From: an uncultured Chloroflexia bacterium | GTDB taxonomy: Bacteria > Chloroflexota > Anaerolineae > Anaerolineales > UBA4823 | Length of the DNA: 64,000 nucleotides | NCBI GenBank assembly: GCA_963797475.1 | Contig: CAWCPR010000001.1 | Location: 53,284 to 117,283 of the forward strand | Direction: 5' to 3' | Part shown: piece after piece, positions 9,470 to 44,958 of the stretch | How positions within the stretch are numbered: the first letter of the stretch is position 1 | Layout of the letters: each line of letters begins with the position of its first letter | Notes under the pieces: generated by a model | Database searches by the model: none | Told to the model about the DNA's origin: nothing | What the model saw: only the letters and a program-made list of their open reading frames with translations | Position numbers and translations under genes: made by a program

Positions 9470-9725
9470 TTGTGGGCGACGGGCGCAAGAGCGACGGGCA
9501 CAAGGCCCTATGCTACCGGGACGATGGGACGCCGACGGGCACATGTAGCATAGCCCCTTGTGGGCGACGGACACATGTAGCATAGCCCCTGTGGGCGTTA
9601 GAGCCCCTTGTGGGCGACGGACACATGTAGCAAAGCCCCTTGTGGGCGACGGACACATGTAGCATAGCCCCTTGTGGGCGACGGACACAAGCGACGGGCA
9701 CAAGGCCCTATGCTACGATACTGGT
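9470..9725. repeat. REP-like palindromic repeat array (about four tandem 32-bp units TTGTGGGCGACGGACACATGTAGCATAGCCCC flanked by inverted GCGACGGGCACAAGGCCCTATGCTAC copies)
   Basis: Direct reading: contiguous units with no spacers, and the flanking copies are in inverted orientation. Confidence 0.8.
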
Positions 9726-12700
9726 GCGAAACCGGCGCTGTTGATTTCTTCGCTGGTCCAATAGAAGGCTTCCTCCAGCTCCGGGTTCCAATTCTCGCGC
9801 TGGCGGCGCAGGCGGTTGAGCGAATCCAGGTCGCCGATACGCGCCAGAGCCTCGATGGCTTTGCGCCGCAGGTAGGTGATATCCGTTACAACCGGGTTGG
9901 CGCCTAAAACGACGCCGTGCAAATCCCCGGCGGCAATCTGCTCGAACAGCTCTTTATAGCTGCGCCGGTTGAGCCAGCCCAAGGACTGGATGGCGTGCGC
10001 CTTGACGCCGATATCGCGAAACTCGTACAGGCAGCGATCCAGGAAATGGGCAGTGGTCGCATCTTGCGCCCGCACCTTGCCGATCAGGTAGGCCAGGCGC
10101 TCGTACCAGCGCGCCCGGCGGCGCCAGGCGCGCGCGTCGATGTTTAGCGTTTTGGCGACCGTCTCATCCAATAAGGGCAGGATCGCCCGGGCAACCACCT
10201 GGGCCGGGTCGACCAGGGCCAGGGCGTCCGTCACCGCCCAGCTCGTCTGCGACGGGGTATCCGGGTCCAGGAAGACCGAGACGAGGCAATCCACGGCCTC
10301 GTCGTTGTTGATCTCGCCCAGGGCAAAGGCAGCGATGGCCTGCGAGCCGGCTGCTTCCGAGCGCAGCCGCTTGCCCAGAGAAGCGGCGTCACGCACGCAC
10401 CACAATTTCAGCACTCCAGCCAGCGTGGGACTGGCCTTCTGGATCTCCCGCTCGTAGCGCGGCATCATCCTCTGCAGGGCGTTGGCGGCAGCCATGCGCA
10501 CACTGCTGTATTCAAAAGTCGGCAATCCCTGCCAGTCGGTGCGCACGCGCTCGAACGCCGCCCGGGCCAGGGCCGGGATGGTCTGAGGCCGCTGCAACTG
10601 GCCCAGCACCAGGGCGGCGCGCGCCCGGCGGGCCTCGCGCGGCTCGTTCGCCGTATCCAACTGGCGCACCAGGACGTCGAACACCTGGTTTTCCAGTTGC
10701 GGGTCGATCTGGCGGCCGCGGTTTTCCAGCAGGCAGCGCGCCAGCAGGTACAACTGCTCGCTCTGGGCCAGGTTCACCCCGTAGACCATCATGCGCAGCA
10801 GGCCGTTCGGGTTGCGCAGCATGCGGCTGGTCAAAACCAGCACGTCGCCCCACCAGCGCAGCCGGGACAGGCGGCCCAGCGAGGCGGTGATGTCGTCCAG
10901 GACCCGGCTGCGATCCGAACGCTGGACGATCTCGCGGGCGCAGCAGTAGGCTTGCAAAGCCGGGTAATTGAAGCGCAGCGAATCGGCCCCCACGCGGGCC
11001 AACAGGTTGCACTGCACGAGCTGGTCAAAAAGGTCCTCCAGGCTGTATTCGCGGTTGCCGCGCACGGAGGCCATGATCTCAAAGGCGTTTCGCACCGGCA
11101 GGACCAGGGTGCGATTCGAGTGCATCTCCCAGGCCAGGGCATACACACTGCGCCCGCTGCGCGAGCGCATGCCGTGCAGCGGCGAAACCTCCGCCAGGGC
11201 GTCATCCACCCAGTGCTCGAGCACGTCCCGGCGGGACTGCGGGTAGCTGCCCTCCTGCGCCTGGCGCAGCATGCCCAACAGCGACCAGGTGGTGGAAGCC
11301 AGGTCGAACAACTGCCGGGCAGCCAGGACGCGGTACAGCCTAGGCCCGGCCGGGTCGCTCAACCCCTGCAGGAACATCTCGACCTTGCGCTGGGACAGCG
11401 GCTGGATGACCAGCAAATCCGTGGCGGCCCGAAAATTACGCCGCGAGTATTCTTCCAGGTCCACCGCCAGGATGAACTCGTGGCGGGAGCCGCGGGCGAG
11501 GGCCTGGATCTCCTCCCAGGCGTCCTGGCGCTGGTCGTCGGGCAGCTCATCGCCGCCATCCAGGATCAGGCGCAGGATCGGCCCCTGATCCCCTTCCAAC
11601 AGCTCGTCAAAATCCGCCGGGGTTAAAGCCGGCCAGAATTCTTGCAGGTTTTGCAAGGTCAGCCCTTCCAGGCGGCTGCGGGTGCCCGGCTGGACCGACT
11701 GCAAGCCGCGCAAATCCACGTAAACCGGGATGATCAACTGGCGGACGCCCGGCTGGAGCGAGTTTTCGGCGGAGATGAGCACCAGCCGGCGCATCTGGGT
11801 GGATTTGGACGAACCGGGGATGCCGGCGACGACGATGAAGGCCCCTTGCGGCTTGCCGCGCGAGCCGGGCTCTTGGCGGCGCGCGGCGAAAATTTGCAGG
11901 GCGATATCGAGCAGGTCCATCGCCGGCAGCGGGTCCTGCCCGACAAGCCGCAGCCTGTCCAGGCTCAGGTCGCCGGCCAGGTGGGCCACTTCGATCGGGA
12001 TCGGCAGGTAGCCGCGCTTCTCCATATCGCTGCGCTGGCGGTTGCGGATGGCCTGCAAAGCCAGCCGGGCCGGGTCGGCGGCGAAAAGCTGCCCGGTTTT
12101 CAGGCGCATGAACAGCACCGGGATGGACCAATCCGCGCCCCGGTCGTTGAAAAGCAGCAGGCGCGCCTGGTTCAAAGCCCGGTCCACCTGGCCGTGCTCG
12201 AGCAGGTGGCCGTAAAAATCGGCGTTAAGCTGGCGGGCCACGTCCACCGGCACGAGGTCCTGCATGGCTACCACCGCAGCGACCCCGCATCTCACCAGGC
12301 TGGGGCCCAGGCCGAGAAAACCATGCGCCTCGCCTGGGTCGCGGCGGGCGGATTCACAGGCGGTCAGGAAGACCAGCCTGGGCAGCGGATCGGCCTGGGC
12401 CAGCTTTTCAACGATCTCGCTGTCGCGGGCGGCGTGGAATTCGCCATTCTCACTCTCCAGGTACAGGGCGGCTGTGCCGGGGGCATTCGAGTCGGGGCGG
12501 CGGTAAGCGCCGTGGCCGATGTAATGCAGGACATGGCAGCCCTGCATGCCGCGCAGCAGGTTATCCAGGCTGGTCGGTCCGGGCAGGATGTGGTAGCCGT
12601 CCTGCTCCAACTGGCCGCGCAGGGCCGGGTCGAGACCGCTGCGGCCGGGCATCACCGAGACTTCCACCAGGTCCTGGCTGGCCAGGTCGCCAAGCGCCTG

Positions 12701-13237
12701 GTGCAGCGCCTGCACCTGGTCGTTCACATCCACCGGGCTGAGGCCGGCCGGCAGGTCGCTGGGGTTGGAAAGGGCCGCCAGGATGCGCACCGGTCGCTCG
12801 GTCAGCGGCGGCGTTTCGGCGATCTCCAGGCCGGTGTAGCGCGAGAAAGGGGTCAGGCCGGAAGTCGCCAGGGACAATTCCTGGCCTTTAAACGAGTGGT
12901 ACAGGCGCTCCCAATTGAACGCCTGCAGCTCGCTGGCGCTGTCGTCGATCCAAAGCTGGACGCGCAGCACGCCCTCCGCCTGGGCAGCGGCCTGGGCGGC
13001 CGCCCGCCCGGCGACCCGCTCGTAGGCGCGCAGGATCGGGCCGGCGAACAAAGCCTTATCCAGGGTTAAGCCGTAGGCCTGGGCGTCCAGTTGAGCGGCC
13101 AGCAGCGCTTTCGGATCGATCTGGAGCTGGCCGCCGGAAAAATAGCTGCCATCATCCAGCTCGGCGTCCACGGCGTACGCCTTGCTGTCCTGGGAAGAGC
13201 GGGTGATATGGATGAGGATCTTGGCCGGCTCGCTCAT
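9713..13237 (-). CDS. CHAT (caspase-like) peptidase - NACHT/STAND P-loop NTPase - HEAT-repeat protein
   Basis: N-terminal CHAT dyad HYIGHGAY...FLTACESAR. Walker A VVAGIPGSSKST and Walker B-like ILRLILDGGDE. C-terminal PBS-lyase/HEAT-like repeats. Its ATG lies 1 nt after the stop of the upstream 111-aa gene. Confidence 0.85.
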   Translation of the reverse strand: MSEPAKILIHITRSSQDSKAYAVDAELDDGSYFSGGQLQIDPKALLAAQLDAQAYGLTLDKALFAGPILRAYERVAGRAAAQAAAQAEGVLRVQLWIDDSASELQAFNWERLYHSFKGQELSLATSGLTPFSRYTGLEIAETPPLTERPVRILAALSNPSDLPAGLSPVDVNDQVQALHQALGDLASQDLVEVSVMPGRSGLDPALRGQLEQDGYHILPGPTSLDNLLRGMQGCHVLHYIGHGAYRRPDSNAPGTAALYLESENGEFHAARDSEIVEKLAQADPLPRLVFLTACESARRDPGEAHGFLGLGPSLVRCGVAAVVAMQDLVPVDVARQLNADFYGHLLEHGQVDRALNQARLLLFNDRGADWSIPVLFMRLKTGQLFAADPARLALQAIRNRQRSDMEKRGYLPIPIEVAHLAGDLSLDRLRLVGQDPLPAMDLLDIALQIFAARRQEPGSRGKPQGAFIVVAGIPGSSKSTQMRRLVLISAENSLQPGVRQLIIPVYVDLRGLQSVQPGTRSRLEGLTLQNLQEFWPALTPADFDELLEGDQGPILRLILDGGDELPDDQRQDAWEEIQALARGSRHEFILAVDLEEYSRRNFRAATDLLVIQPLSQRKVEMFLQGLSDPAGPRLYRVLAARQLFDLASTTWSLLGMLRQAQEGSYPQSRRDVLEHWVDDALAEVSPLHGMRSRSGRSVYALAWEMHSNRTLVLPVRNAFEIMASVRGNREYSLEDLFDQLVQCNLLARVGADSLRFNYPALQAYCCAREIVQRSDRSRVLDDITASLGRLSRLRWWGDVLVLTSRMLRNPNGLLRMMVYGVNLAQSEQLYLLARCLLENRGRQIDPQLENQVFDVLVRQLDTANEPREARRARAALVLGQLQRPQTIPALARAAFERVRTDWQGLPTFEYSSVRMAAANALQRMMPRYEREIQKASPTLAGVLKLWCVRDAASLGKRLRSEAAGSQAIAAFALGEINNDEAVDCLVSVFLDPDTPSQTSWAVTDALALVDPAQVVARAILPLLDETVAKTLNIDARAWRRRARWYERLAYLIGKVRAQDATTAHFLDRCLYEFRDIGVKAHAIQSLGWLNRRSYKELFEQIAAGDLHGVVLGANPVVTDITYLRRKAIEALARIGDLDSLNRLRRQRENWNPELEEAFYWTSEEINSAGFAPVS

Positions 13238-13238
13238 C

Positions 13239-13574
13239 TCACTTGATGAAAGATTTGAGCATCCCTGTCAGGGCGTCCAAAATGCGGGCGCGGTATTCGA
13301 TGGCGGTCGAAACGTTGCGCTGGTGCAGTTCGAGCAAATCGGTGTCGACTGCCAGGGCGCCGGTCTCGCTAACACGCACTGGCAGGATGGCCTGGCTGTC
13401 GCCATCCAGCTTGACCACCGTGCGGGCCAGGGGCTTGGCCTGGGCGAAGTCCACATCCCCGTCCGCCCCGATCTTCACGTAGCTCGTTTCCACAGACATG
13501 GTGGCGATGTTATCCACGTAAGCGGCCGCTTTCTCGGCCGCGCTGCGGATGGAAGTTTCCAAATCAGTTGCCAT
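13239..13574 (-). CDS. Small protein (111 aa) sharing a domain with the C-terminus of the upstream caspase-like peptidase
   Basis: It aligns by eye to the last roughly 90 aa of the 689-aa protein (KPLARTVVKLDGDSQAILP versus AKLRAFTMIKIDGDTQVVVP). It is tightly coupled to the CHAT gene. Confidence 0.6.
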   Translation of the reverse strand: MATDLETSIRSAAEKAAAYVDNIATMSVETSYVKIGADGDVDFAQAKPLARTVVKLDGDSQAILPVRVSETGALAVDTDLLELHQRNVSTAIEYRARILDALTGMLKSFIK

Positions 13575-13652
13575 TTCCTATCTCCCTTGGTTGGTATCGA
13601 TCTAAAATCGGTTTGCATGGCCCGCCGGCCAGGGGCTGGCGGGCCGGGTCCT

Positions 13653-14417
13653 TTACGATCCTTCCGGATGGGCTAATTCTGCGCGCACCTGGTTGATAAA
13701 GCTCAAAGCCGCCGGCAGGGCCAGGAGCGGCCCGGCGGGAGTCGCCAGCAGGGTCGAAAGCTTCAGCGCGCCGGCGGCGACCACGGCAAACGTGCGCAGC
13801 AGGGCGGCGCGGGAATCCAGGGCCAGCTTCAGCGTGCGCTCGTGCAGGGCGGACTGCCCGTCGGCCGGTTGGATGTACCAGGCCGTGTCCATGTCGCCTG
13901 TCCAGCTCACCGACGTACGCGCCCAAAGCCGGCCTTGCACGCGGGTCTCCACCCAGGCGTAGTGGGTCACGATTTGCTCCAGGCGCTGCATGAACTCTTT
14001 GAACTGGGCGACAGCCTGTCCCCATTTGTCCGAAACCTGGTCCAGGGGGCCAAAGCTGAACGAGTCCCAGGACTGCCCCGGCGCAAAGCTCAACATCTGC
14101 CCGCTCTCCTGGGCGTAGGCCAGCAGCGCCAGGGTCTCGCTTTCAGGCGGCGGAAGCTCCTCACCTGGCTCGCCAGCCGCGAAAGACAGCCCGCTGGCCT
14201 GGCGCAGCCTCAGGCGTTCCAGGCGTTCTTCGCTAATTTCCAGGGCCTGCTCGCCGGCCTGCAGGCTGGCCTGCGCCTGTTGGAAGGCCGCAAGCGCCTG
14301 TCCCGGTTCGGCCGGCAGCTCGCTGCGCCAGACGGTGACATCCGCCGGGATGGCTGCCGGCGGGGATCCGGGCGCGAGGTCGAACGAAATCGCTGCCGGG
14401 TCTGCCTGGGTCGACAA
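13653..14417 (-). CDS. Hypothetical protein (254 aa) with hydrophobic C-terminal segment
   Basis: Only coherent ORF in the interval; the opposite-strand 308-aa ORF is Arg-rich junk. The C-terminal stretch TFAVVAAGALKLSTLLATPAGPLLALPAALSFI is hydrophobic. Confidence 0.5.
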   Translation of the reverse strand: MSTQADPAAISFDLAPGSPPAAIPADVTVWRSELPAEPGQALAAFQQAQASLQAGEQALEISEERLERLRLRQASGLSFAAGEPGEELPPPESETLALLAYAQESGQMLSFAPGQSWDSFSFGPLDQVSDKWGQAVAQFKEFMQRLEQIVTHYAWVETRVQGRLWARTSVSWTGDMDTAWYIQPADGQSALHERTLKLALDSRAALLRTFAVVAAGALKLSTLLATPAGPLLALPAALSFINQVRAELAHPEGS

Positions 14418-14512
14418 CCTGCCAGGGGCCAGCCAAACCCGAGCCGGGCTGGGCCTGGCTTTCGCCGATCAGCACGAAGGCCGCCGAAGAGCGGCTGGAC
14501 CCGGCGTTCACC

Positions 14513-16582
14513 TCAGAGCACCTTGAGCGCCTGCAGCAGCCCGGTGGCTGCCGAAGCGGCCGCTTTCATCATCTCGGTCCGGTTGGCCTGCGCCTGCCGG
14601 ACCATATCCAGGTGGATGGACCACAAAGCCTGGTCGATCTCGCCGGAGTCTTCCGGCACGACCACCTGGGTATCGCCATCGATCTTGATCATGGTGAAGG
14701 CGCGCAGTTTGGCGCCAGGAGGGATGTCGTTGCCAGTGCCGACCGCGGCCATGTCCTCGACAACGTAGGTGGAAACCTGCAAGGTGGCGGCGTCGTCGAC
14801 CGCCTTGGCCAGGGCTTTGCCCAGGTTCTCGGCGAACTGCTGGACGGCGTTGGTCAGGCGGGCGCGCGTGTCCGAAAGGCTGTCCAGCAGGCCAAAATCC
14901 ACACCGGCGGCGTCGACGACCGCCGTTGCCGTCAGGGTCAGACTTGCGGCGGCCCCAACGGAGGCGGCTTGAGCGCCGGCTGCGGGGGCGGGCGCAGCTT
15001 CTGCCGCAGGGCCGCCCTCCTGGCTCAAGGCGCTGGGAGTTTTCGGTTCCGCGGAAGCGCCGGGGGATACGGCGGCGGGCGACTGCACCGCGCTCGTCAC
15101 GAAGACCGGGCGCTCGAGGGGCTTTTCGCCGCCGGCGACCACCGGCAGGCGCACGGCCGGGTCGCCGATAATCGTGTAGCCGCGGGCGTCGTTGTTGGCC
15201 GTCCACTTGCCGGCCAGCTCGTACGGATCGACCTTCTTGCCAAATTCCACGTCTTCCAGATCGTCGCTCAGCACAGTCGAAAGCTCGGCGTAGCGATTGT
15301 TAAAATACTCGATCGCTGCCCCAACCGGTTTGCCGGTGAACAGGCTTAACAAAGCGCTCTCGAATACGGTGGTCTGTTTCCCGGCGTCGGGCCACAAGAA
15401 AGAATAACCCCAGGCGCGCTCCACATGGCCGACCACCGCCAGGGCCCCGCCGCGCGGGTGGCCGAGCAGCTTCCTGGGCAGTCGAGCCAAAAAGGGCGCT
15501 TTGGCGATGGGCTTGGGCTGCTTGAAAGCCTGCCTGGAGAACTCGTCGATGAGCGGCGTGCCGGCCCCGTAGCAGGCGAAGAAAAAGGCGATCAGCCCCA
15601 ACAGGCCGGCATCGGAGGCCAGGTCTTCCCCGGTGAAGTAGAAATCCTGCGGGACGGCGCCTTTGCCCTGCCAGGCCGCCGGACCGGGCCAATCCTGGCA
15701 GAGCAGCGCCCCCTGGCGCACGGTCTGGTCCTGGCTGTCCAATGAGAAGCTCATCCCGTGGCTGGCGCTGAAGAGCAAGGCCGGGGTCTGGTCGCCGCCC
15801 AGCAGGCGGCTGAGCTGGGCCTTGGTGGCCTGGTCGCGCAGGACGGCGTCGAACTCCCAGCCCTTGAGATTTTCTTTTTCTTGATCCTTATCCTTGAATG
15901 TGGTGTACAGGGGCTCGACCAGGTTGTCGGCGCTCAGTTGGGTGGCTTTATCGCCCGGGTTGGAAACGCCGAAAAACGAAGCCCGGCGAGGCAGCTTCAG
16001 CTTACCGGATTCGGCCGTCGCCACGCTGTGGGCGTAGCTGGCGTATTCCCCTGGCGTGTCGAAATGGATGCGGCCGACCGCGTATTGCACGTCGAGCTGG
16101 CTTTGAAAGCGGTAGGGGATCTCGGCCGGGCTGCCGGCGACCAGCAGGTAATAGGGTATATTTTCAGGATCCGCCGGCCCGGGCCCTGCGCCGTGACGGG
16201 CCAGGAAATCTGTCTTGGATTCGTCCGGCCGGTAGCCGTCCGGGCCCTCATAGATGCGGAAATGGTCGCCGGCCTGCTCGCGGCGCAGGTCGATCAGCTC
16301 CTTCAACGCATCCTTAATTGCCGGGTCCGCATTGGCCGGGAAGATCACGCCCCAGCCGGACTCGGCCAGGTTGTACGGGTCCACCCCTTCCTTGACCCCA
16401 AAGTCTGTTTCGGTGGAGCGCTTGTGGCGGAATTTGAGCTCGCTGAGATTCTCGGGCGTGCCTTCGCCCTCGATGAACTTAGCAAGCTGCTCGCCCGTCA
16501 AAGGCGGCAGGGAATATTCGCCAGTTTCGCCATCGATGCCGTTGAAGAAGAGAAGTTCTTGTTCGGCGGGTGCATCGGTCAT
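14513..16582 (-). CDS. Caspase-like (clan CD) cysteine peptidase with low-complexity linker and C-terminal small domain
   Basis: His then Cys catalytic order: ALLFSASHGMSF ... IAFFFACYGAGT. An Ala/Pro-rich linker follows. The C-terminal approximately 90 aa are homologous to the 111-aa neighbour. Confidence 0.7.
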   Translation of the reverse strand: MTDAPAEQELLFFNGIDGETGEYSLPPLTGEQLAKFIEGEGTPENLSELKFRHKRSTETDFGVKEGVDPYNLAESGWGVIFPANADPAIKDALKELIDLRREQAGDHFRIYEGPDGYRPDESKTDFLARHGAGPGPADPENIPYYLLVAGSPAEIPYRFQSQLDVQYAVGRIHFDTPGEYASYAHSVATAESGKLKLPRRASFFGVSNPGDKATQLSADNLVEPLYTTFKDKDQEKENLKGWEFDAVLRDQATKAQLSRLLGGDQTPALLFSASHGMSFSLDSQDQTVRQGALLCQDWPGPAAWQGKGAVPQDFYFTGEDLASDAGLLGLIAFFFACYGAGTPLIDEFSRQAFKQPKPIAKAPFLARLPRKLLGHPRGGALAVVGHVERAWGYSFLWPDAGKQTTVFESALLSLFTGKPVGAAIEYFNNRYAELSTVLSDDLEDVEFGKKVDPYELAGKWTANNDARGYTIIGDPAVRLPVVAGGEKPLERPVFVTSAVQSPAAVSPGASAEPKTPSALSQEGGPAAEAAPAPAAGAQAASVGAAASLTLTATAVVDAAGVDFGLLDSLSDTRARLTNAVQQFAENLGKALAKAVDDAATLQVSTYVVEDMAAVGTGNDIPPGAKLRAFTMIKIDGDTQVVVPEDSGEIDQALWSIHLDMVRQAQANRTEMMKAAASAATGLLQALKVL

Positions 16583-16734
16583 ATGTGCGCCTCCTGGATA
16601 TGAAAGATAGAGAATTGAAACGATCAGGGAGCCATCGCCCGGTCAGGCGGGTCCGGGAAGTGGTTTTAAGCTCGCCCCACCAGCCAACATCCACCACTTT
16701 CCCGCGCCTTAAAATATATCACAAATTTGCTCTG

Positions 16735-17010
16735 AATATGAGGCGGGCGCCCTCACCCCTGCCCCTGCCCTCACCCCTGCCCCTCTCCCGCGTGCGGGAG
16801 AGGGAAGATCTCGATGTCACAGGTCACCTGACTGACGCGACTCCCTTTCTCGCCCTCACCGTGCGGGAGAGGGGAATCGACAGGACTCCTTCGATGTCAC
16901 AGGTCACCTGATTGAACGCGACTCCCTTTCTCGCCCTCACCGCGTGCGGGAGAGGGGAATCCGCCTGGCAAGGACTCCTTCGATGTCACAGGTCACCTGG
17001 CCGGACGCAA
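16735..17010. repeat. Tandem array of three repeats of about 75-78 bp, each with GC-rich hairpin (CTCTCCCGCGTGCGGGAGAG) and GATGTCACAGGTCACCTG box
   Basis: Direct reading: three near-identical consecutive units in the region between the 16582 gene start and the 17231 gene end. Confidence 0.8.
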
Positions 17011-17230
17011 CTCCCCTTCTCGCCCAAAATTTGGGAGAGAAGGGGCTGGGGGATGTGAGGGCCAGGGCGTAAGTCGCAGCCGCGACGAAGAGCGCCCTCT
17101 GGGCGTCCATGCCTCTCCCCGAGCAGGGACCAAAGCCTGATGTTGAACGCCGCCATTAATCACAAGGCCAGGAGCTGCAAGTGCTTGAGCCTGCAGCTCC
17201 TGATTCTTCCGGCGTTACAGAAAAAACGGC

Positions 17231-20200
17231 TTACTGGGCGACCAACGTCACATTCTTCGGATTGTAATTCACAGTATACCCCTGCCCATGCCCATCGATT
17301 GTGGCAAACTGACCGGCGCGTGCGGCAAAGGTCATCACGATAAAGCTGTCGCCAAGGGTAGGAACATAACCGCCGGCCAACGTGACGTCCAGCGCGCCGT
17401 CTAAGGTTGCATTTCCAACGATGGCGAACTGATCATACTCTGTAATCGGAGCCTGGCCGCCAATTTTTACATGCAGAACGCCGCTGGCGGTCTGGGTGAA
17501 ATCCCCGCCAAAACGCAACTGTCCCGACTGGACGTCCACGCTGCCGCTGTTGACGAAGGCCGGATTTACGCGGGTCTCGCCGCTGCCGCCCGATTTTGTG
17601 AGGGAGCCGTGGTTCTGGAAAGATGCCCCGCCCGTACTGATATAGATGAAGTCATCGCCCTGGAAGTCGAAGGTCGCTCCCGCCAGGTTGGCGATGACTG
17701 CCGCATGGTAGGCGGTGAGCGAGCCGTCCAGGAGAACTGCCGCCCCGGCGTTCTCCAGGCTGCGACCATCCAGGTAGCGCCCGTAGCTGCCGCTGAAGGT
17801 CAGGCCGCCGTTGGCCCGCGTGGTCCCAATGCCGCTCATGGTGCCGTAGTTCCAGGTCAGCATGCCTGCCACATCCACGTCCCCGTTTCCCGTCAGCGTC
17901 CCGCCGCTCATCGTCAGGGCGCTGGTGCCGGCGGTCAGGCCAGCGCTGACCGAGAGCGTGCCGCCAGCCAGGGTGGTGTTGGCTGCAGTGTAAGTGCCGC
18001 TCAGGGTGAGCGTGCCGGAGCTGAGGCGCACATTGAGACCAGAGAGGCTGCCGCTCAAGGTGTGCGACCCGCCGCCGATCTCCAGGGTTCCGGCGCCCTG
18101 GAACGAGCCGGCGTCCATACCGCCGCCTCGCAAGGTGAGCGTGCCAGCCTGCACGTCGACGACCCCGCTGTTGTTGAGCGGGATGTAGATGCTCGCCGAC
18201 CCGCTGCCAGCCGATTTGCTGAGCGTCCCCTGGTTGTCGAACGTGGCGCCTCCCGTGCTGGAGTAGATGAAGTCATCGCCCTGGAAGTCGAAGGTGGCTC
18301 CCGCCAGGTTGGCGATGACTGCCGCATGGTAGGCGGTGAGCGAGCCGTCCAGGAGGGCTGCCGTCCCGGCGTTCTCCAGGCTGCGGCCGTCCAGGTAGCG
18401 CCCGTAGCTGCCGCTGAAGGTCAGGCCGCCGTTGGCCCGCGTGGTCCCAATGCCGCTCATGGTGCCGTAGTTCCAGGTCAGCAAGCCTGCCACATCCACA
18501 TCCCCGTTCCCCGTCAGCGTCCCGCCGCTCATCGTCAGGGCGCCGGTGCCGGCGGTCAGGCCAGCGCTGACCGAGAACGTGCCGCCGGCCAGGGTGGTGT
18601 TGGTTGCAGTGTACGTGCCGCTCAGGGTGAGTGTGCCGGAGCTGAGGCGCACATTGAGACCAGAGAGGCTGCCGCTCAGGGTGTGCGACCCGCCGCCGAT
18701 CTCCAGCGTGCCGGCGCCCTGGAACGAGCCGGCGTCCACGCCGCCGCCTCGCAAGGTGAGCGTGCCAGCCTGCACGTCGACTACGCCGCTGTTGTTGAGC
18801 GGGACGTAGATGCTCGCCGACCCGCTGCCAGCCGATTTGCTGAGCGTCCCCTGGTTGTCGAACGTGGCGCCTCCCGTGCTGGAGTAGATGAAGTCATCGC
18901 CCTGGAAGTCGAAGGTGGCTCCCGCCAGGTTGGCGATGACTGCCGCATGGTAGGCCGTGAGCGAGCCGTCCAGGAAGACTGCCGCCCCGGCGTTCTCCAG
19001 GCTGCGGCCGTCCAGATAGCGCCCGTAGCTGCCGCTGAAGGTCAGGCCGCCGTTGGCCCGCGTGGTCCCTATGCCGCTCATCGTGCCGTTGTTCCAGGTC
19101 AGCATGCCTGCCACGGCCACGTCCCCATTCCCCGCCAGCGTCCCGCCGCTCATCGTCAGGGTGCCGGTCAATACGGAGGCCTGCCCGATATCCAACGTCC
19201 CGCCGGAAAGTACGATCGCTGCCTCGCTTTTCAAGCTGAGAACGGCATCCGCGCCACGGGAATGGACGATCGTGACAGCTCCGGGAACATCGATAATCAC
19301 ATTCTGAGTGGGGCCGGGTATGAGATTGGGTTTCCAGTTGAAAGGATCGTGCCAGGAGGTGCCATCGCCTTCGCCGTCCCAATAGACGGTGCCGTAGCCG
19401 GGCTGTTCGTGGAAGAAATCGAAAAAGAGGAACACAAAATCCCCGGTTGCCGGGCCGACCCCCTCTATTATGCGGGTTTTATTGTTCGCCACGTCATAGG
19501 CGACGGCTGTAAAGGGCTCCCCAGCGGGGATGAGAGGCACAAAGAAGTAGCCGCCCGGGTCTGCTACTCCGCTGAAGGGAATGGGTGAACCGGCCGAGAA
19601 TACCTTAATGATCACCGGGCTGGCTGCTTGCGGAGCGCGAGCGGCGCCGCCTCCACCTCCGCCCACGTTGCCGCACCCATTGCCGCCTGGAGGCGGCGCG
19701 GAGCCCATACCGGTCAGCCCGGAGCCGCCGCCCGTCTGGGAAGGCGAGCAAACAAGCGCCGGTGTTGGCGGCGGGCATTCAGCATCGCCGAGAAACCAGA
19801 TTTCTATCATCCCAAAAACTATCGTCAATCCGGCGGCGCAAAGGCCGCCAGCAAGCGGGCTAAAAATTATTGCACAGCCCAGGGACGTCAGGGTTATCCC
19901 TACCAGAACGAGCGAACGGATAATTTTAAGCTGGGTCTTCGTAAAACAGCCGGCCAAAAGGCGTGAAATCGAGTCCGCTTCCAGTTGGTTTGCCTGCGCC
20001 AGGATGCCCGAATTTTCGATGAGCGTGGCCGCGTCGATCAAAAATTGCTGAACCGCGGGCGATGGGTCACTGCTGAGCTGTTCAAAAATAGAACCGGTCT
20101 CGGTAAACTCAATAATCAATTGAGCCAACTTGTCATTGGTACCGACAGAGGTCTGGATCCCATTCAGAGTGGCCAACGATTGGGTGAAGAAGTCATGGAT

Positions 20201-21430
20201 AATGTCACTGGCTGGCCTGTTGATTGGGGTTGGCTCTTCCACCGTGATCGCGATTGACTGTGTTGTTGCGCCCGTGCTTTCATTGCGAAAGGAAAGCGTT
20301 GCAGGCCCGGCTGGCAATATCGGGAGGATGGCAGAGAGCGTTTGGGAAGAGCTTTGCCCGTCTAAATCCGGGCTTAGCAGGGCCGGCAATTCAATTTTTG
20401 TGCCATCTACCGACGAAAGAAAAACGGCCACATTCCCAGACAGCGAATAGGGGTTAAAGCCCGTGGTTTCTACCTCGATGCTCGTGCCGGGCGGACCCGA
20501 GATACCGGCCTGAACGCCAGCCACAGAAAAGCTCTGGCTGGAGACGACCGCCGAGCCCTTTAACAAAACCTGCGGGATGGGGTCAGAAATGACGTCGTTG
20601 TTCGGCGCAACGCTGGCGCTGTTGACGACCACGATTTCATCCACACCGTCGCCATCCGCGTCCGGCATAATCTGGTAGTTGACCACCACCTGGCCCGGCT
20701 GGACTCGGTTGCCAAAATCGGCTGAAGCTACCCGGTAGGGCAGGGAAATCGGAGCCGGGCTTTGAATACTTTGCGCTCCCAGGAAAGTGACTCCCATCGC
20801 ATCCCAATTGATGCCGTTTTGCGCGGTCACTTCTTGCTGGGTCAGCTCATCCACCGAGACGGACGTTCCGTCCGGCAGCGCGCCTGGAGGGATCGTGATG
20901 ATGCTGCCGATCTCGCTGCCCAAGACACCTCCCTGCGAGCCGATGACCCCGCTCGATGGGGGATTGGGCAGTACATTGACGGTGATGCTTTTGCTGGTTT
21001 GTCCGCTGGGTCCGCTGGCGACGGCTGTCAGGGTTAAGTTCCCCGCCGGGAACGCGCTGGCATCGAAAAAGACTTGATAGCCATCGCCCGGGGTGTTGTC
21101 GACGCCCAAGGAGGTCGTGGCTGCGCTGAACGCCACGCGGGTCACGGTCTTCGGATCACGCGGCTGGGCAGCCAGGTACAGCATGCCGCTGACGGTCCAG
21201 CCATCGGATGGGCTGGTAATTTCAAAGTCTGGAGGCCCAGGCGGTGTGACAATGATCGGCAAGAAAATGGTATTGGGCGCTTCAATGCCAGTTTGCGCCA
21301 GACGGTTCTGACCTTGCAAACGGCTGGCGGCCTGAAGTGTTTGAGCCTGCACAGCCAGGGGCTGGAAGGAGAGAGCAAATACTAAACAGGCCATTAAAAT
21401 CCGAGATGTCGTTTGGTGTTTCATATGCAT
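17231..21430 (-). CDS. Giant surface/secreted protein with signal peptide, Ig-like N-terminal region, internal hydrophobic/Gly-rich segment and autotransporter-type (PATR) beta-helix repeats
   Basis: Signal peptide MKHQTTSRILMACLVFALSFQPLAVQAQ. Three near-identical units of about 165 aa (...GSYGRYLDGRSLENAG...TLTLRGGG...) with G.L.L.G repeat texture. A TM-like stretch LVLVGITLTSLGCAIIFSPLAGGLCAAGL and a Gly run GGGGGGAARAP. Confidence 0.85.
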   Translation of the reverse strand: MHMKHQTTSRILMACLVFALSFQPLAVQAQTLQAASRLQGQNRLAQTGIEAPNTIFLPIIVTPPGPPDFEITSPSDGWTVSGMLYLAAQPRDPKTVTRVAFSAATTSLGVDNTPGDGYQVFFDASAFPAGNLTLTAVASGPSGQTSKSITVNVLPNPPSSGVIGSQGGVLGSEIGSIITIPPGALPDGTSVSVDELTQQEVTAQNGINWDAMGVTFLGAQSIQSPAPISLPYRVASADFGNRVQPGQVVVNYQIMPDADGDGVDEIVVVNSASVAPNNDVISDPIPQVLLKGSAVVSSQSFSVAGVQAGISGPPGTSIEVETTGFNPYSLSGNVAVFLSSVDGTKIELPALLSPDLDGQSSSQTLSAILPILPAGPATLSFRNESTGATTQSIAITVEEPTPINRPASDIIHDFFTQSLATLNGIQTSVGTNDKLAQLIIEFTETGSIFEQLSSDPSPAVQQFLIDAATLIENSGILAQANQLEADSISRLLAGCFTKTQLKIIRSLVLVGITLTSLGCAIIFSPLAGGLCAAGLTIVFGMIEIWFLGDAECPPPTPALVCSPSQTGGGSGLTGMGSAPPPGGNGCGNVGGGGGGAARAPQAASPVIIKVFSAGSPIPFSGVADPGGYFFVPLIPAGEPFTAVAYDVANNKTRIIEGVGPATGDFVFLFFDFFHEQPGYGTVYWDGEGDGTSWHDPFNWKPNLIPGPTQNVIIDVPGAVTIVHSRGADAVLSLKSEAAIVLSGGTLDIGQASVLTGTLTMSGGTLAGNGDVAVAGMLTWNNGTMSGIGTTRANGGLTFSGSYGRYLDGRSLENAGAAVFLDGSLTAYHAAVIANLAGATFDFQGDDFIYSSTGGATFDNQGTLSKSAGSGSASIYVPLNNSGVVDVQAGTLTLRGGGVDAGSFQGAGTLEIGGGSHTLSGSLSGLNVRLSSGTLTLSGTYTATNTTLAGGTFSVSAGLTAGTGALTMSGGTLTGNGDVDVAGLLTWNYGTMSGIGTTRANGGLTFSGSYGRYLDGRSLENAGTAALLDGSLTAYHAAVIANLAGATFDFQGDDFIYSSTGGATFDNQGTLSKSAGSGSASIYIPLNNSGVVDVQAGTLTLRGGGMDAGSFQGAGTLEIGGGSHTLSGSLSGLNVRLSSGTLTLSGTYTAANTTLAGGTLSVSAGLTAGTSALTMSGGTLTGNGDVDVAGMLTWNYGTMSGIGTTRANGGLTFSGSYGRYLDGRSLENAGAAVLLDGSLTAYHAAVIANLAGATFDFQGDDFIYISTGGASFQNHGSLTKSGGSGETRVNPAFVNSGSVDVQSGQLRFGGDFTQTASGVLHVKIGGQAPITEYDQFAIVGNATLDGALDVTLAGGYVPTLGDSFIVMTFAARAGQFATIDGHGQGYTVNYNPKNVTLVAQ

Positions 21431-21433
21431 GCC

Positions 21434-21490
21434 TCTATTTTGATGAATCTCTCTTCAATATGTTGCGTGGTGCGCCACAAGCGCCCAACA
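21434..21490 (-). repeat. Copy A of conserved bipartite ~60-nt motif (GTGTTGGGCGC...ACGCAACA ... TTCATCAAAATAG), ends 5 nt before the ATG of the 17231-21430 gene
   Basis: Direct sequence comparison with five other copies. Confidence 0.7.
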
Positions 21491-21553
21491 CTATTCGAAC
21501 CAACAGTTATGCCCGCATTGCCGTCTCAAGCCGCTTCTCTGCCGAGGGCGCGC

Positions 21554-23653
21554 TTACTGCTCCTGAGGCGCCGCTTCAACGGGTTGGGTATGGATATCGA
21601 TAGAACCTAAAAACAAGGCCAGGTCAGTGATCTCTGAGGCGTTCAAAGCGTTGCCATTTTCTTGCGGGTCGGGGTGGCCGGAAGCCAACAACGCCTCCAG
21701 GTTCGGCATCGAGCCATCGTGCAGGTAGGGGGCGGTCAGGTTGACGTTCAGCAGGGAAGGAGGGTCGAAACCCGTCTCCCCGCGCACATCGCGAGGATTC
21801 AGACTGCCCACATCCAACAAGACGCCATCCATCATTCCGTTTCCATCCGGGTCTAAGGTTCCGGCCGGCCCGGGTAAAGCGCTGTTCGTCCAGTTTGGCC
21901 CGCCATGACAGGTCGCGCAGCCAGCCGATTGGAACAGCTCTCGCCCGCGGGAGACATCGCCTGCGGGGGAAGCCAGCGCAGGAACCGGTATCCCGGCGTC
22001 CAGGAAAGCCGCCAGGGCATCCAGGGCTGAGGAACGGCCGCCGTTCGGCGTTCCCAGCAGCGCCGGATCGGCGCCTGGCGCCAGCCCCACGCCATGCTGA
22101 ATGAGCTGCAGGGTCTCTTCCACATCCTGGGCTTCATCCAGGGCCGCCGACCAGTGCCAGGGCAGGGTGTGAGAAGCGTTCCACAGGGGCGGAGTTTGGC
22201 GCGGGCCGTCCGGGAACATCCAGGTGAGGCCATCTGTACCCCCATCCGGGTGACAACTGGCGCAGGACATCCACGAGCCTTGACTGAGGCGCGGGTCAGC
22301 AGCGTAATTGAACAGGATCTTGCCTTGTAGGATCTCTGGCGGCAGCAATTCAGCGCTGACCTTGATTTCGGAAACCTGCTTCAGACTTTCCAGATCGAGA
22401 ACCGTGATCGAGCGCCCGAGGTAGTTCATCACGTAGCCCCGGCGGCCGTCAGGGCTAAGGGCCATGCCGCGCGGATTCATCCCCACCGGTAAAAAGGTTA
22501 CCAGCCGGGGTTGGTCCGGCGTAGAAATATCCACCACTTCCACCAGATTGCTTCCGGCCAGGACAATATAAAGCCTTTGCCCGTCCGGGTCAGGGATTGC
22601 AGCCAGCGGGTTATTCACGGGCGACCCAAATATGACCTGATCGTTGAGCGGTAGATAGGCGGCGGCATATTCCCGGGCCTTTTCCAGATCCAGCGTCGAA
22701 ACCGCGGCGAACAACGTGGTGGTCAATCCGCGTGGCAAATCCGGGGCGGCGCGCTCGTAAGGCAGCCAGGCGCGAGAACCCAGAATGGTGATCCCCATGA
22801 GCAAGCTAGGAAAACCATGCTCGTCTGGGAGCAGCGTGATTTGCCCGGAAACGGCGTTGGCGGCAGGGTCGATGATCGTGACGCGCCCCTGGCGGCTGTC
22901 GTCCCGTCCTTCTTCGCCGCCCGCACGTGGAAAGGCCTGCTGGTGGGTGACATACACCCGCTCATCCAGATCTTCGTTGTCGCCATCATCGCTGATGGCA
23001 ACTGCAAATGGCCTGGCAGCCACCGGGATTGCCGCGATCTGCTCCAGGCTGGCGGTGTCGAATACGGCTACCTGGTCTGAAGTCGTGAGGGAGATGTAGG
23101 CTCGCGAGCCGCTTGGGGTCAAAGCCAGGCTGGCCGGTTCCGGCCCGACCGGGAGGCTGGCTTGCACCCTTTTCGCCAGGCCATCGATCACCACCAGCGT
23201 CCCGGCTGCCCGGTCTAAGACGAAAACGCGGCGGCCGTCTACCGCCATGGCGACCGACCAGGGCGTCTGCCCAACCGGGATTTCGGCCGTCTTTTCCAGG
23301 GAAGCCGCATCGAGCACGCTGATCGAGCCTGAATCAGGGTTCGCCACCCAAACCGACCCGTCAAGCGGCGAAATGGCCAAAGGCCCACTCCCGGAGACCT
23401 TTCCACTCTCGCCGTTGGCCCGGGTGACGAAGGGCAGATACGTGGCAGCGGTGTCTGTATTCAAGGGTTGTCGCAGCTCAGCCGCGCGGACCTGGCCTCC
23501 CAAAAAGATACTGGCGATACCGGTTATGACCAGCAGGATGAATTTGCGAGGGTGTGAGAAGTGTTGGGCGCCTTGGCGCGCTACGCAACACGATTTCAGA
23601 TATTCATCAAAATAGGTCGCCATTTTCGCGAAAGATGATTTTGCCGCTCCCAT
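21554..23653 (-). CDS. YVTN-type beta-propeller fused to di-haem cytochrome c peroxidase-like domain
   Basis: Two CxxCH motifs (CASCHPDGG, CATCHGGPN) and repeated ...SV.V.D....V..I propeller blades. The true start is probably downstream of the listed ATG, near the signal peptide KFILLVITGIASIFLGGQVRA. Confidence 0.75.
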   Translation of the reverse strand: MGAAKSSFAKMATYFDEYLKSCCVARQGAQHFSHPRKFILLVITGIASIFLGGQVRAAELRQPLNTDTAATYLPFVTRANGESGKVSGSGPLAISPLDGSVWVANPDSGSISVLDAASLEKTAEIPVGQTPWSVAMAVDGRRVFVLDRAAGTLVVIDGLAKRVQASLPVGPEPASLALTPSGSRAYISLTTSDQVAVFDTASLEQIAAIPVAARPFAVAISDDGDNEDLDERVYVTHQQAFPRAGGEEGRDDSRQGRVTIIDPAANAVSGQITLLPDEHGFPSLLMGITILGSRAWLPYERAAPDLPRGLTTTLFAAVSTLDLEKAREYAAAYLPLNDQVIFGSPVNNPLAAIPDPDGQRLYIVLAGSNLVEVVDISTPDQPRLVTFLPVGMNPRGMALSPDGRRGYVMNYLGRSITVLDLESLKQVSEIKVSAELLPPEILQGKILFNYAADPRLSQGSWMSCASCHPDGGTDGLTWMFPDGPRQTPPLWNASHTLPWHWSAALDEAQDVEETLQLIQHGVGLAPGADPALLGTPNGGRSSALDALAAFLDAGIPVPALASPAGDVSRGRELFQSAGCATCHGGPNWTNSALPGPAGTLDPDGNGMMDGVLLDVGSLNPRDVRGETGFDPPSLLNVNLTAPYLHDGSMPNLEALLASGHPDPQENGNALNASEITDLALFLGSIDIHTQPVEAAPQEQ
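23561..23615 (+). repeat. Copy B of conserved bipartite ~60-nt motif
   Basis: GTGTTGGGCGCCTTGGCGCGCTACGCAACACGATTTCAGATATTCATCAAAATAG. It lies between convergent-tandem minus-strand genes, antisense to both. Confidence 0.7.
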
Positions 23654-24654: not shown

Positions 24655-27381
24655 CTATTTCGGGCTTGAGCAGCCCGAGCAAATCTCTTCGAATAACTGC
24701 GAATGAAGGAAAGGCTGTTTGAGCACCGGATCTTCGACTTGAGCTGCCAGGCCGGTCAGGATCGCTCCGGCCTGTTCGCAAACAAGCCGAGAGGCGCCCG
24801 CCTCGCCAGAGACAGCCAGCGCCTGACCCAGGGACTTGAGCGCACGCGCCTGGTCGTAGATGCGCCCAATCCCCTCCCAGCCGGCGGCCGCCTGGCGCAG
24901 GCGCTCAATAGCCGCGACCGGCAGACCTTCTGCCAGGGCCAGGATGCCCTGACCTTCCGCCAGGGCGACCCTGCTCTCCGGCGTATGGAATTGCTGGTTG
25001 GCGCGCTCCAGGCGGGTACTACAGGCCTGGGCGGCTGCGAGCATCCCTGGTTGGGAGGCATACCAGGAACAGGCAAACAGCAGGGGCGTCGTACAGCCCC
25101 AATCGAGATACGGATTGTCATCCATTAACCCTAAAAATTGCTGGATGGTTTCCCTGGTTTCCATCTCCAATCCAAGAGCGGCGTAGGCACGCGCCAGTTG
25201 CTCCAGATGCGGCACGGTGATCTGGATTTCTCCCCACTTCAGGACCTTCGGCAAGGCGCGCTCCAGCTCCAGGCGGGCGATCTCTGCGCGGCCCAGGTCG
25301 TTGTAGATGCGCCCGATCAGCCTGGCATTCCACAAACCCCAGCCATCCAATGCCCATTTCAACAGCTCTTGCCAGCGGTCGAGCACCTGCGCCCAGCGAC
25401 CACACAACCAATCCAGGGATGCAAGGCGGCGAAACGCGCCGCCCGGAAAGCTCAAGGCCTGGACGCGCCTGGCATAAACGTAGAGCTCCTCATACACCGC
25501 ATACGCCTCTTTGTAACGGCCCAATCCTGCCAGGTCTTCACCAATATCGAAATAAGCCCGGCAGGCGTCGTGAGCCATGCCCAGGGTGAGCGAGCGGCGA
25601 AGGCTGGTTTGAAGCATGCCAAGGCCGCGCTCTTGATCGAATTCATACACATGCACACGCGAGCTGCCGATATTGGTGAGCGCGTGTACAATGACCCCAT
25701 CCGCCCCCAGACGCTCTGCCAGCGCCAGGGCGCGCTCACCCCATTCGATTGCCTGATCGAATTCAGACGCCACCAGGTGCATCTGCGAAATTGAGCTGAG
25801 GGCGCGGGCCAATTCGACCGTATCCGGGGCCTGCTCCAGCAAGGCCAGCGCTCTCAGGTGGTGTAGTCTGGAGGCCTCGCGATCGCCGAGCTCCCAACAC
25901 AGCCGCCCGATCACCCGCTCTGTATCGCCGGCCTTCAAAAACTCACCCAACCGCTCGAACAATACTCGAGCCGATTCGAAGGATTCGAGCGCGCTTTGGG
26001 TTTCCATGCTTACCCATTGGCACTGACCGAGTTTGTAGAGCGTCTCGGCCCGGCCGGCAGGGTCTGCCTCTGGCCAATGTTCAAGGGCGGCCCGGTAGTG
26101 CTCGGCCGCATCCTTCAACGCGATCAATTGTTGGGCCCGGTCGCCGGCGCGCAGGGAATAGATGCGCGCCGGTTCAGCTTCGCCGGCCTGGGTGAAGTGG
26201 TATGCCAGGAATTCGTAATCTTCCGGGCTCAGGGCCTGCGCCGCGCCCGCAATTTGCTGGTGCAAATAGGAGCGCCGCGGCGCAATCAGGTCTGAATAAA
26301 TCGCTTCCTGTACCAGGTGGTGGGCAAAGGCAAAAGTACCTGCCGGCTCACTTTCGTGCAGAAAGCCCCTGGAGAGCAACTGCTCCACTGCATCCAGCGC
26401 GTCTTTATCCGCCCAACCCCCGGCGCGTTGAACAATGCGATATTGAAAGACGCGTCCAGCCACGGCGGACGTTTGAAGAAACGCCTGCGTTATTTCGCTC
26501 AATCGTTCGATACGGGCGTTGATCGTCGCACGCAGCGAGTCTGGCAAAGGCAGCCCGCTGGCTGGCGCGGCTGCGACGACCTCGCCCGACCACTGGCCGG
26601 CCTTCAGCTCGATTTCCCCTGACTCGATCATCGCGTGGGCGATCTCTTGTAGAAAAAACGGGTTGCCCCCAGTTTCGATAAAAAGGCGGTCGGCAATGGA
26701 GATGACGCTGCTTTCTTCCAAACCGGATAAGAGAGCTACCAGCTCCCGGCAAGACTGGCGCGTGAGTGGTTGCAGCGGGACCTTGAAGAAGGCGCTCTCC
26801 CGTTCAAAGCGCCGCTCAAGGCGGGCCAGGGTATGCTTGCCGCTCACTTCATCGGTTCGATAAGTGAGGATGATTAAGACGCGGCTGGGGCTCAAACGCG
26901 GTATCACATAGGTCAGCCAATCCAGCGTGGATTGGTCAGCCCAGTGCACGTCTTCAAACATCAGCAGCATCGGCTGTCTCCAGGCAAGCGTGAGAAAAAC
27001 CTGCCAGATGGCTTCAAATAAGCGGGCGCGCAAGTCATCCAGCGCCAACGCCTCTTCCAGGGACTGCGCCGCGCCGAAAACGTCTGGCGCCAGCCGGACG
27101 AGCGCAGTGCGATACCCGGCAGGGAGAGGCGCGCTGCGCAGCAGCTCCTGCGCTGAACGAAACATTTCGAGCACTGCTTGATAGGGGACTGCGCCTTCGA
27201 ATTCAAAGCAATGGCCAACCAGCGGCAGACCGCCGCGCCTTGCGACCTGAAATGCCAGGCTGCGAACCAGGTGACTTTTGCCTACACCAGCTTCGCCGCT
27301 CACGACCGCCATACAGCCCTGCCCGCCTGCGACGCTTTCCCATAACTCGAGCAGCCTGGCCATCTCACCTTCTCGACCCAC
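24655..27381 (-). CDS. AfsR/SARP-family regulator, AAA/NB-ARC ATPase plus TPR portion
   Basis: Walker A GEAGVGKSHL followed by long TPR/helical repeats. It overlaps by 82 nt the upstream ORF that encodes the DNA-binding/BTAD part. Confidence 0.8.
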   Translation of the reverse strand: MGREGEMARLLELWESVAGGQGCMAVVSGEAGVGKSHLVRSLAFQVARRGGLPLVGHCFEFEGAVPYQAVLEMFRSAQELLRSAPLPAGYRTALVRLAPDVFGAAQSLEEALALDDLRARLFEAIWQVFLTLAWRQPMLLMFEDVHWADQSTLDWLTYVIPRLSPSRVLIILTYRTDEVSGKHTLARLERRFERESAFFKVPLQPLTRQSCRELVALLSGLEESSVISIADRLFIETGGNPFFLQEIAHAMIESGEIELKAGQWSGEVVAAAPASGLPLPDSLRATINARIERLSEITQAFLQTSAVAGRVFQYRIVQRAGGWADKDALDAVEQLLSRGFLHESEPAGTFAFAHHLVQEAIYSDLIAPRRSYLHQQIAGAAQALSPEDYEFLAYHFTQAGEAEPARIYSLRAGDRAQQLIALKDAAEHYRAALEHWPEADPAGRAETLYKLGQCQWVSMETQSALESFESARVLFERLGEFLKAGDTERVIGRLCWELGDREASRLHHLRALALLEQAPDTVELARALSSISQMHLVASEFDQAIEWGERALALAERLGADGVIVHALTNIGSSRVHVYEFDQERGLGMLQTSLRRSLTLGMAHDACRAYFDIGEDLAGLGRYKEAYAVYEELYVYARRVQALSFPGGAFRRLASLDWLCGRWAQVLDRWQELLKWALDGWGLWNARLIGRIYNDLGRAEIARLELERALPKVLKWGEIQITVPHLEQLARAYAALGLEMETRETIQQFLGLMDDNPYLDWGCTTPLLFACSWYASQPGMLAAAQACSTRLERANQQFHTPESRVALAEGQGILALAEGLPVAAIERLRQAAAGWEGIGRIYDQARALKSLGQALAVSGEAGASRLVCEQAGAILTGLAAQVEDPVLKQPFLHSQLFEEICSGCSSPK

Positions 27382-30414: not shown

Positions 30415-30640
30415 CTTTTCCCTTCCCTTGTTCCCACGCGGAGCGTGGAAACATCGCCCTCACCCCTGCCCCTCTCCCGCGTGCGGGCGAGGGGAATCTG
30501 GCCGGCAGGCAGTTTCCCCTTGTTCCCACGCTCCGCGTGGGAACAACTTCTTTCCGCTCCGCGGGCTCTTTGCGCGGTCAAGGCGCATGGACGCAGAGCT
30601 CACGGAAGAGGTTACCACGCAGAGCGTGGTAACCAGGAAC
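30415..30640. repeat. Cluster of palindromic hairpin repeats (CCACGC-NNN-GCGTGG / CCCGCGTGCGGG family)
   Basis: Contains TTCCCACGCGGAGCGTGGAAACA, CTCTCCCGCGTGCGGGCGAGGGG, GTTCCCACGCTCCGCGTGGGAACA and GGTTACCACGCAGAGCGTGGTAACC. The same family occurs at 16750-16990 and 33057-33081. Confidence 0.75.
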
Positions 30641-30926
30641 CAGGAACCAACCAAGAACAAGAGATATGGCAGCCCCATATATGGGTGAAAATTCCAAAAT
30701 ATAGGTTTTAACCCCCGTATATGGGGCATTTTTACGCCGGAATTAACCTTGACATTTCCAATTCGTACTATAATTAAAGCGCGTACGCAGTTGGCAGGGG
30801 ACCGGCGTTGTGGCAGCGAGCACCAACCGCCAAAACACGCCTGTCGTCGCTGGCCGCGTACTTATCGATTAACCTGGTTAAGGCAGCCCAGCCCATGCGA
30901 CTTTCAGGCGGCTTCCCAGGACAAAA

Positions 30927-30982: not shown

Positions 30983-30991
30983 GAGTTTGCA

Positions 30992-44938: not shown

Positions 44939-44958
44939 CTCTGGCAGGTGTATGATTA

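Follow-up and report, generated by a model that had tools for sequence, protein, structure and literature searches.

Organization of the intergenic region upstream of the C25-like peptidase operon

The window (the whole 64-kb stretch of DNA analysed here) carries a 648-nt intergenic gap between the gene of a 1399-aa Big_7 protein (17231-21430, - strand) and that of a 689-aa C25-like peptidase (14513-16582, - strand). The initial annotation had recognized three tandem repeats of about 75-78 bp between the 3' end of a giant surface-protein gene and the start of a peptidase operon, and the coordinates of the two genes bore out this location. The whole repeat structure spans ~16749-17077 and consists of three copies of a short box alternating with four G/C-rich hairpins, designated H0 to H3, which together make up about 2.5 units. 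Tandem Repeats Finder (TRF) placed the core of the array at 16811-17025 (period 89, 2.5 copies, 86% matches, 8% indels, score 308), and the boxes are spaced 80 and 89 nt apart. The three boxes were thus real, but the units are 80 and 89 nt long and amount to about 2.5 copies, and the extent assigned earlier (16735-17010) was too short, since the array continues to ~17077 and its fourth hairpin, at 17013-17045, had been missed. At the other end, the 18-nt block GCCCTCACCCCTGCCCCT, C-rich and complementary to the third-strand block of the triplex motif H0 described below, is duplicated exactly and in tandem at 16749-16784 on the + strand (TRF period 18, 2.0 copies, 100%; family D3). A CRISPR array was rejected, as the stretches between the boxes repeat each other and no Cas-family match was found among the Pfam-scanned ORFs of the window.

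A set comprising a C25-like peptidase (~670 aa), a 254-326-aa protein and a 111-aa protein is conserved between the operon downstream of the array (9713-16582, - strand) and the contigs L026 and L027-L031 of relatives, of which L026 is the closest relative contig available (ortholog 78% identical). As judged by its best named protein relative, the window itself would come from Chloroflexota, of Thermoflexales or an order close to it. In the window and in L026 the set is followed by a 1174-aa CHAT-HEAT protein. Homologs of the C25-like peptidase number more than 5900 in public data. Since none of the operon proteins matched PADLOC, the label 'conflict operon' given earlier draws on the CHAT and C25-like domains only. 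At 51271-57144 (+ strand), 35 kb off the operon, the gene of a CHAT-SIR2 protein (693 aa) precedes that of an nSTAND1-WD40 protein (1258 aa); in L031 and in the P0007 contig these two genes are the immediate upstream neighbours of the C25-like operon. At 24655-28160 (- strand), a 286-aa BTAD (SARP-like) ORF shares 82 nt with the beginning of a 908-aa AAA_16/NACHT/TPR ORF, and the two may represent one AfsR-like regulator split by a frameshift or a mis-set start.

The array is absent upstream of the orthologous C25-like operons in L026, L027-L030 and L031, where the gaps upstream of the operon measure 336, 234 and 91 nt, respectively, and the neighbours of the C25 operon differ in every relative examined. 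On the other side of the array, the pair formed by a cytochrome gene and the giant-protein gene is conserved in a Thermoflexales genome, in which other genes follow after 92 nt with no array in between. Since the pair is conserved elsewhere with other genes following it, the array lies at a synteny break, outside either conserved unit.

Hairpins H0 to H3 and the BoxC/PIT/TM_ECO family

BoxC, then PIT (potential intrastrand triplex) and later TM_ECO are successive names of one E. coli element (Holder et al. 2015, NAR 43:10126, PMC4666352), and HPGQ, a conserved G-quadruplex/hairpin motif, is the same motif under another description (PMC5100583). The published TM_ECO pattern is CCCTCNCCC N3-6 GGGNGAGGG N3 GGGNGAGGG, the type B blocks of E. 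coli are CCCTCTCCC, GGGAGAGGG and GGGTGAGGG (Table 1 of PMC4666352), and 3610 copies were counted in 262 proteobacterial genomes; stable triplex formation in vivo was not shown in E. coli (PMC4666352). The strict pattern, with its 3-nt second loop, gave no match in the window, because the second loop here is 4 nt long. When a second loop of 2-5 nt was allowed, the pattern, as CCCTCNCCC-N6-GGGNGAGGG-N4-GGGNGAGGG, matched 16768-16804 and 30457-30493 in the window, as against 0 matches in 100 shuffles.

The first of these matches is H0 (16768-16804, - strand), which reads CCCTCTCCC GCACGC GGGAGAGGG GCAG GGGTGAGGG, so that its three blocks are those of E. coli TM_ECO type B, letter for letter. Its Watson-Crick hairpin (~16780-16805) is the inverted repeat CTCTCCCGCGTGCGGGAGAG quoted in the initial annotation and folds at -22 kcal/mol on both strands. 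H3 (17013-17068, + strand) is a longer triplex-type motif, CCCCTTCTCGCCC AAAATTT GGGAGAGAAGGGG CT GGGGGATGTGAGGG(CCAGGGC), in which three blocks of 13 nt were read by inspection; its hairpin at 17013-17045 (inverted repeat I4, 16 nt, 94%) folds at -24 kcal/mol, and its G-rich tail is complementary, over a long range, to 16749-16790, a pairing that appears in the folds. As H0 is in - and H3 in + orientation, the two form an inverted pair of two subtypes, with a GCAG and a CT loop, respectively.

The inner hairpins are of another kind. H1 (16839-16878, + strand) is a chimeric or degenerate motif hairpin made up of GACTCCCTTTCTCGCCC, TCACC and GTGCGGGAGAGGGGAATC, and H2 (16920-16961, + strand) is a second such chimera, the same as H1 save for a 2-nt indel. 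Both have an H0-like right arm, GCGGGAGAGGGG, but a left arm, CTCCCTTTCTCGC, that pairs with it through G-T/U wobbles. On the left side of both, the 17 nt GACTCCCTTTCTCGCCC agree with the left arm of H3 (17009-17025) at 15 of 17 positions, while on the right side 19-22 nt (CGTGCGGGAGAGGGGAATC) agree at 79-95% with the right arms of H0 and the 30-kb copy (30477-30498); for the right 22 nt of H2, identity to 30477-30498 is 95%. Hence, of the statement that each unit has a GC-rich inverted repeat, the hairpin holds for every unit, but the perfect palindrome, CTCTCCCGC-GT-GCGGGAGAG at 16781-16804, is confined to H0, and H1 and H2 differ in the left arm.

The second full motif, CCCTCGCCC GCACGC GGGAGAGGG GCAG GGGTGAGGG (30457-30493, - strand), lies inside another hairpin-repeat mosaic. 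Related hairpins had been noted earlier at 30415-30640, and rightly so: 30456-30493 is 97% identical over 38 nt. In this mosaic, the second triplex motif is surrounded by GTTCCCACGC-N3-GCGTGGGAAC and GGTTACCACGC-N3-GCGTGGTAACC hairpins whose loops are flipped (GGA as against TCC), and one further copy of the GTTCCCACGC hairpin family is found at 33043-33094 (33.07 kb). Outside the window, the 23-mer GCCCTCACCCCTGCCCCTCTCCC is present in L026 and in seven IMG/VR contigs, all seven of which carry the full three-block motif; in three of the seven (L033, L035 and L038) an opposite-orientation TTA-type motif lies 8-44 nt away.

By its sequence, the hairpin module is a member of the known, widespread BoxC/PIT/TM_ECO-type family. 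It shares with E. coli type B the three consecutive blocks CCCTC(T/G)CCC, GGGAGAGGG and GGGTGAGGG, and the CTCGCCC 'mismatch' variant is also found here, in 30457-30493 and in H3. The triplex motifs are intergenic at two loci in the 64 kb, and those of the array are strictly intergenic and occur in several copies. The H0/H3 pair resembles the inverted pairs of E. coli, which combine type A with type B, and the array locus, a synteny break with local duplications, may be rearranged and variable, as are TM_ECO loci, including inverted pairs with one common variable region, which are more rearranged between E. coli strains (PMC4666352). The differences from TM_ECO are a second loop of 4 nt (GCAG; equivalently, 10-nt stems with a 2-nt loop) instead of 3 nt, a first loop of GCACGC, the 13-nt blocks of H3, a Chloroflexota-like host as against the proteobacterial genomes in which the published copies were counted, and paired motifs that enclose a tandem repeat and lie ~210 nt apart, where those of TM_ECO are separated by some tens of nt.

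The box is known from this array alone

The box, taken as the 18-mer GATGTCACAGGTCACCTG, occurs exactly three times in the window, at 16813-16830, 16893-16910 and 16982-16999, each time on the + strand; in shuffles of the window 0.02 matches were obtained, with up to 3 mismatches permitted. In its 20-nt form, TCGATGTCACAGGTCACCTG, it has the same letters in all three copies, and the base after the third copy is G, not A. The 10 nt immediately 3' of the box differ between copies at up to 5 positions. A conserved 20-nt box beside 10 variable nt could reflect selection on the box. The GGTCACC reported earlier is indeed present in it, as are a perfect 11-nt palindrome, CAGGTCACCTG, and a direct repeat, GTCAC-AG-GTCAC.

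No second copy of the box or of the linker was detected in the 64-kb window, even at 3-4 mismatches. The palindrome CAGGTNACCTG has no other intergenic copy in the window, and the two 1-mismatch matches of the box palindrome there are both inside genes. Exact scanning with the 18-mer returned 7 matches in 185,579 species genomes, 17 in JGI metagenomes and 1 in IMG/VR. In these exact-word scans all public matches were single and extended over just 18-25 nt, none had a triplex motif near it, and all seven genome matches and several of the others fall in long open frames, as by chance. Nine contigs (L008, L013-L018, L021 and L022) from two related JGI samples, Ga0307508 and Ga0307509, share one 19-nt match outside long open frames, which is probably a repeat of an unrelated organism. 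At the protein level, seven concatenated open-frame translations of the unit gave nothing at E<=10 against 5.8 billion proteins, and the 78-aa open frame of the unit, searched against 1.84 billion representatives, gave one match, to an unrelated repetitive protein (P0198). The box-bearing unit is known from this array alone, across the window and the public collections, which do not include the source genome.

Regulatory readings of the array

A promoter-like block lies outside the array, at 16666-16735 on the - strand, where 54 of 71 positions are identical to 7230-7298 of L026. It has an extended -10, TGATATATT (16721-16713, - strand), within GCAAATyTGTGATATATTTT, and the homology to the upstream region of L026 stops 14 nt short of the array. 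A sigma-70 scan of the - strand from the array to the start codon found no -35/-10 pair; we regard 16666-16735 as the putative promoter of the operon on account of its conservation and the extended -10. A sigma-54 promoter was rejected by eye, the GG-N10-GC-like stretch not being conserved in L026.

Directly after the stop codon of the 1399-aa gene there is a terminator-like hairpin (17203-17168, - strand; inverted repeat I8), in which a 14-pair stem is followed by CCTTGTGATT. This hairpin, outside the array, was the only one returned by the intrinsic terminator scan, and none of the array hairpins is followed by a T-tract. The array had been proposed to be a triplicated operator or a terminator module for the downstream operon. 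Since the array is absent from the orthologous operons, the promoter-like block lies 14 nt from its edge and the upstream gene has a terminator-like hairpin of its own, neither proposal is supported.

As an operator, the array would provide three upstream activating sites, ~110, 190 and 280 nt upstream of the start point of the operon, at which a dimeric regulator would bind CAGGTCACCTG or GTCAC-N2-GTCAC and control the C25-like/CHAT operon. The 20-nt box is kept perfectly in three of three copies around its 11-nt palindrome, variation sets in just downstream of it, the array lies upstream of the promoter-like block, and same-strand genes 8-11 kb upstream encode two regulators, one a BTAD protein and the other an AAA_16/TPR protein, all of which would suit such a role. 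The sites are, however, distant from the putative -10, and their spacings of 80 and 89 nt are not multiples of the helical turn. The box is missing upstream of the orthologous operons of four relatives, though L026 retains the promoter-like block, and the palindrome recurs nowhere else in the intergenic DNA of the window, its two 1-mismatch matches being genic. Moreover, the near-identity of units 1 and 2 explains the identity of the boxes without selection. We therefore consider a triple operator very improbable. SARP-type heptad repeats, as sites for the nearby BTAD regulator, were dropped, because the GTCAC repeats are 7 nt apart and not 11.

A role at the RNA level was weighed as well, in which the four stem-loops would act on read-through from the giant gene as a back-up terminator or attenuator, or protect the 3' end of the giant-gene mRNA; REP/BIME elements play such roles in E. 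coli. The array is downstream of the giant gene and on its transcribed strand, each of its hairpins has a fold energy of -19 to -25 kcal/mol on either strand, and the 351-nt array region folds 4.5-5.9 sd better than shuffles. As the hairpins are about equally stable on both strands, the strand asymmetry of G-U pairs is uninformative on an RNA function. Against such a role stand the separate terminator-like hairpin nearer the stop codon, the want of a T-run after any array hairpin, and the Thermoflexales ortholog of the giant gene, with its 92-nt gap devoid of an array. No Rfam family reached the gathering score over the window, with chance-level matches only in 16500-17300, and PIT/TM elements had neither terminator nor promoter activity in E. 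coli (PMC4666352). An adaptive RNA-level element is, on balance, improbable.

Other repeats of the window and comparison with dispersed elements

Intergenic regions of the same 64 kb harbour at least five other short repeat families. One, of ~60 nt, has six copies of 81-95% identity in both orientations (21434-21496, 23559-23616, 30925-30983, 44954-44999, 48219-48276 and 62967-63028), with an internal hairpin and a consensus of about GTGTTGGGCGC(N5-7)GCGCnCCACGCAACATnATT..AGA..ATCAAAATAG. Two of these copies stop 8-12 nt short of a start codon, in front of the genes that begin at 21430 and 30992, and appear to supply these genes with the AGGAG/AGAGG ribosome-binding site. A GTAG-tagged REP-like family, GTAGCATAGCCCCTTGTGGGCGACGG(G/A)CACAAG with the inverted partner ...CACAAGGCCCTATGCTAC, has at least eight copies, tandem and inverted, at three intergenic loci (9476-9704, 41930-42200 and 43617-43820); family C (GTAGCATAGCCCC...) carries the GTAG tag. 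At 41696-42197, GGAATCCCCCTCGATCCCCCTTGCCAAGGGGGAC hairpins, GGTCACACG linkers and the GTAG family are combined into a large mosaic array (periods 38, 70 and 115 nt), and a hairpin related to it follows the CHAT gene in L026 (14301-14380). A CCCCCTT..AAGGGGG family at 41.7-42.2 kb is present in L026 too.

It had been suggested that the repeats could be members of a dispersed palindromic family. This holds for the hairpin module, which has a second copy in the window, a copy in L026 and copies in seven viral contigs, but not for the box, of which this array has the only copies found. The box and hairpin unit, or the whole H0-[unit]n-H3 block, might still be a modular non-autonomous family of which the present locus is one insertion. 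The terminal modules are inverted and partly complementary (I1, I2 and I5; folds), other mosaics of hairpin modules and linkers occur at 9476-9704, 30415-30640, 41696-42197 and 43617-43820, and 64 kb is ~2% of a genome of at least 3 Mb, so that the window would usually include one locus of a family with a few dozen. However, the window has no second box or linker at 3-4 mismatches, the species genomes, JGI metagenomes and IMG/VR gave single 18-25 nt matches without a triplex motif, no predicted protein carries the translated unit and no target-site duplication is visible at the array. L026 has a degenerate triplex motif ~830 nt ahead of its operon; it has the triplex motif and the family D hairpin in common with the window, but not the box. 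A composite dispersed element is thus unlikely, though worth bearing in mind.

Among known systems, REP/BIME elements and pneumococcal BOX elements come close to this arrangement. As in REP/BIMEs, palindromic units alternate with conserved linkers in intergenic DNA, growth would be by tandem reiteration of a palindrome with adjacent DNA, and a true GTAG-tagged REP-like family is present in the same window. In some E. coli BIMEs the linker motif is read by IHF. By analogy, the 80-89-nt unit could be an undescribed composite repeat of this Thermoflexales-like Chloroflexota lineage, with CAGGTCACCTG read by a sequence-specific DNA-binding protein and the array, between two predicted non-B-DNA triplex motifs, organising or regulating the boundary of the C25-like/CHAT operon; we give this little credence. 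Pneumococcal BOX elements, reportedly described by Martin et al. in 1992 as boxA, n copies of boxB and boxC, likewise have two partly complementary end modules around a variable number of internal tandem copies. They differ from the array in having no sequence similarity to it and in being dispersed, with more than 100 copies per genome, whereas the unit of the array is known at one locus in the window and the public collections, from which the source genome is absent. REPs differ, too: they are palindromes of 20-40 nt tagged at one end with GTAG or CGTC (PMC3733652), while neither GTAG nor CGTC abuts the stems of H0-H3. In the window, no gene of a RAYT (REP-associated tyrosine transposase, Y1) was detected, no Y1_Tnp match being found among the 36 window ORFs scanned against Pfam.

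Origin of the array

The most likely account, and one that we hold to be probable, is a recent local amplification of the spacer within an inverted pair of triplex motifs, with no dedicated function. The ancestral locus would have been H0 - spacer with box - H3, in which both motifs are complete and face opposite ways. The flanking palindromes H0 and H3, which are partly homologous, would then have undergone unequal recombination or replication slippage, so that the box-bearing spacer between them was amplified to three copies, and each new junction would have become a hairpin (H1 and H2) with an H3-like left arm and an H0-like right arm. Unequal exchange between palindromic cores should leave just such a junction, in which the left part of the downstream repeat is joined to the right part of the upstream one. 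Since one substitution and three indels are all that separates units 1 and 2, the duplication is recent, and recent duplication by itself explains the identity of the boxes, which would owe it to this event and not to being read by a protein. The exact 18-nt duplication in H0 is an additional local duplication.

H1 and H2 depart from a simple crossover product in having an extra TCACC and in missing ~14 nt, so the recombination history, which we reconstruct from the present sequence, would need at least one further deletion. The degenerate motif of L026 suggests that a motif at this boundary may be old. The proposed amplification agrees with the growth of REP clusters, which expand by reiterating the palindrome and its flanking DNA in tandem (PMC3733652), and with the rearranged TM_ECO loci of E. 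coli (PMC4666352). The array would accordingly be a by-product of the instability reported around triplex motifs. The most that its stable stem-loops would provide is passive insulation of two co-directional transcription units from each other, and the operon does not appear to need the array.

Repeat-driven intergenic turnover is thus the better explanation of the apparent triplicated operator upstream of a conflict-type protease operon, and for this reason the array should not serve to infer regulation. The range of BoxC/PIT/TM_ECO, a motif whose conservation is still without an explanation, is extended by the recurrence of its blocks, letter for letter, in several viral contigs and a Chloroflexota-like genome. 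Holder et al. reported local variability at TM_ECO without a mechanism (PMC4666352); the chimeric H1 and H2 hint at how inverted motif pairs may create such variability, namely by unequal exchange between their palindromic cores.
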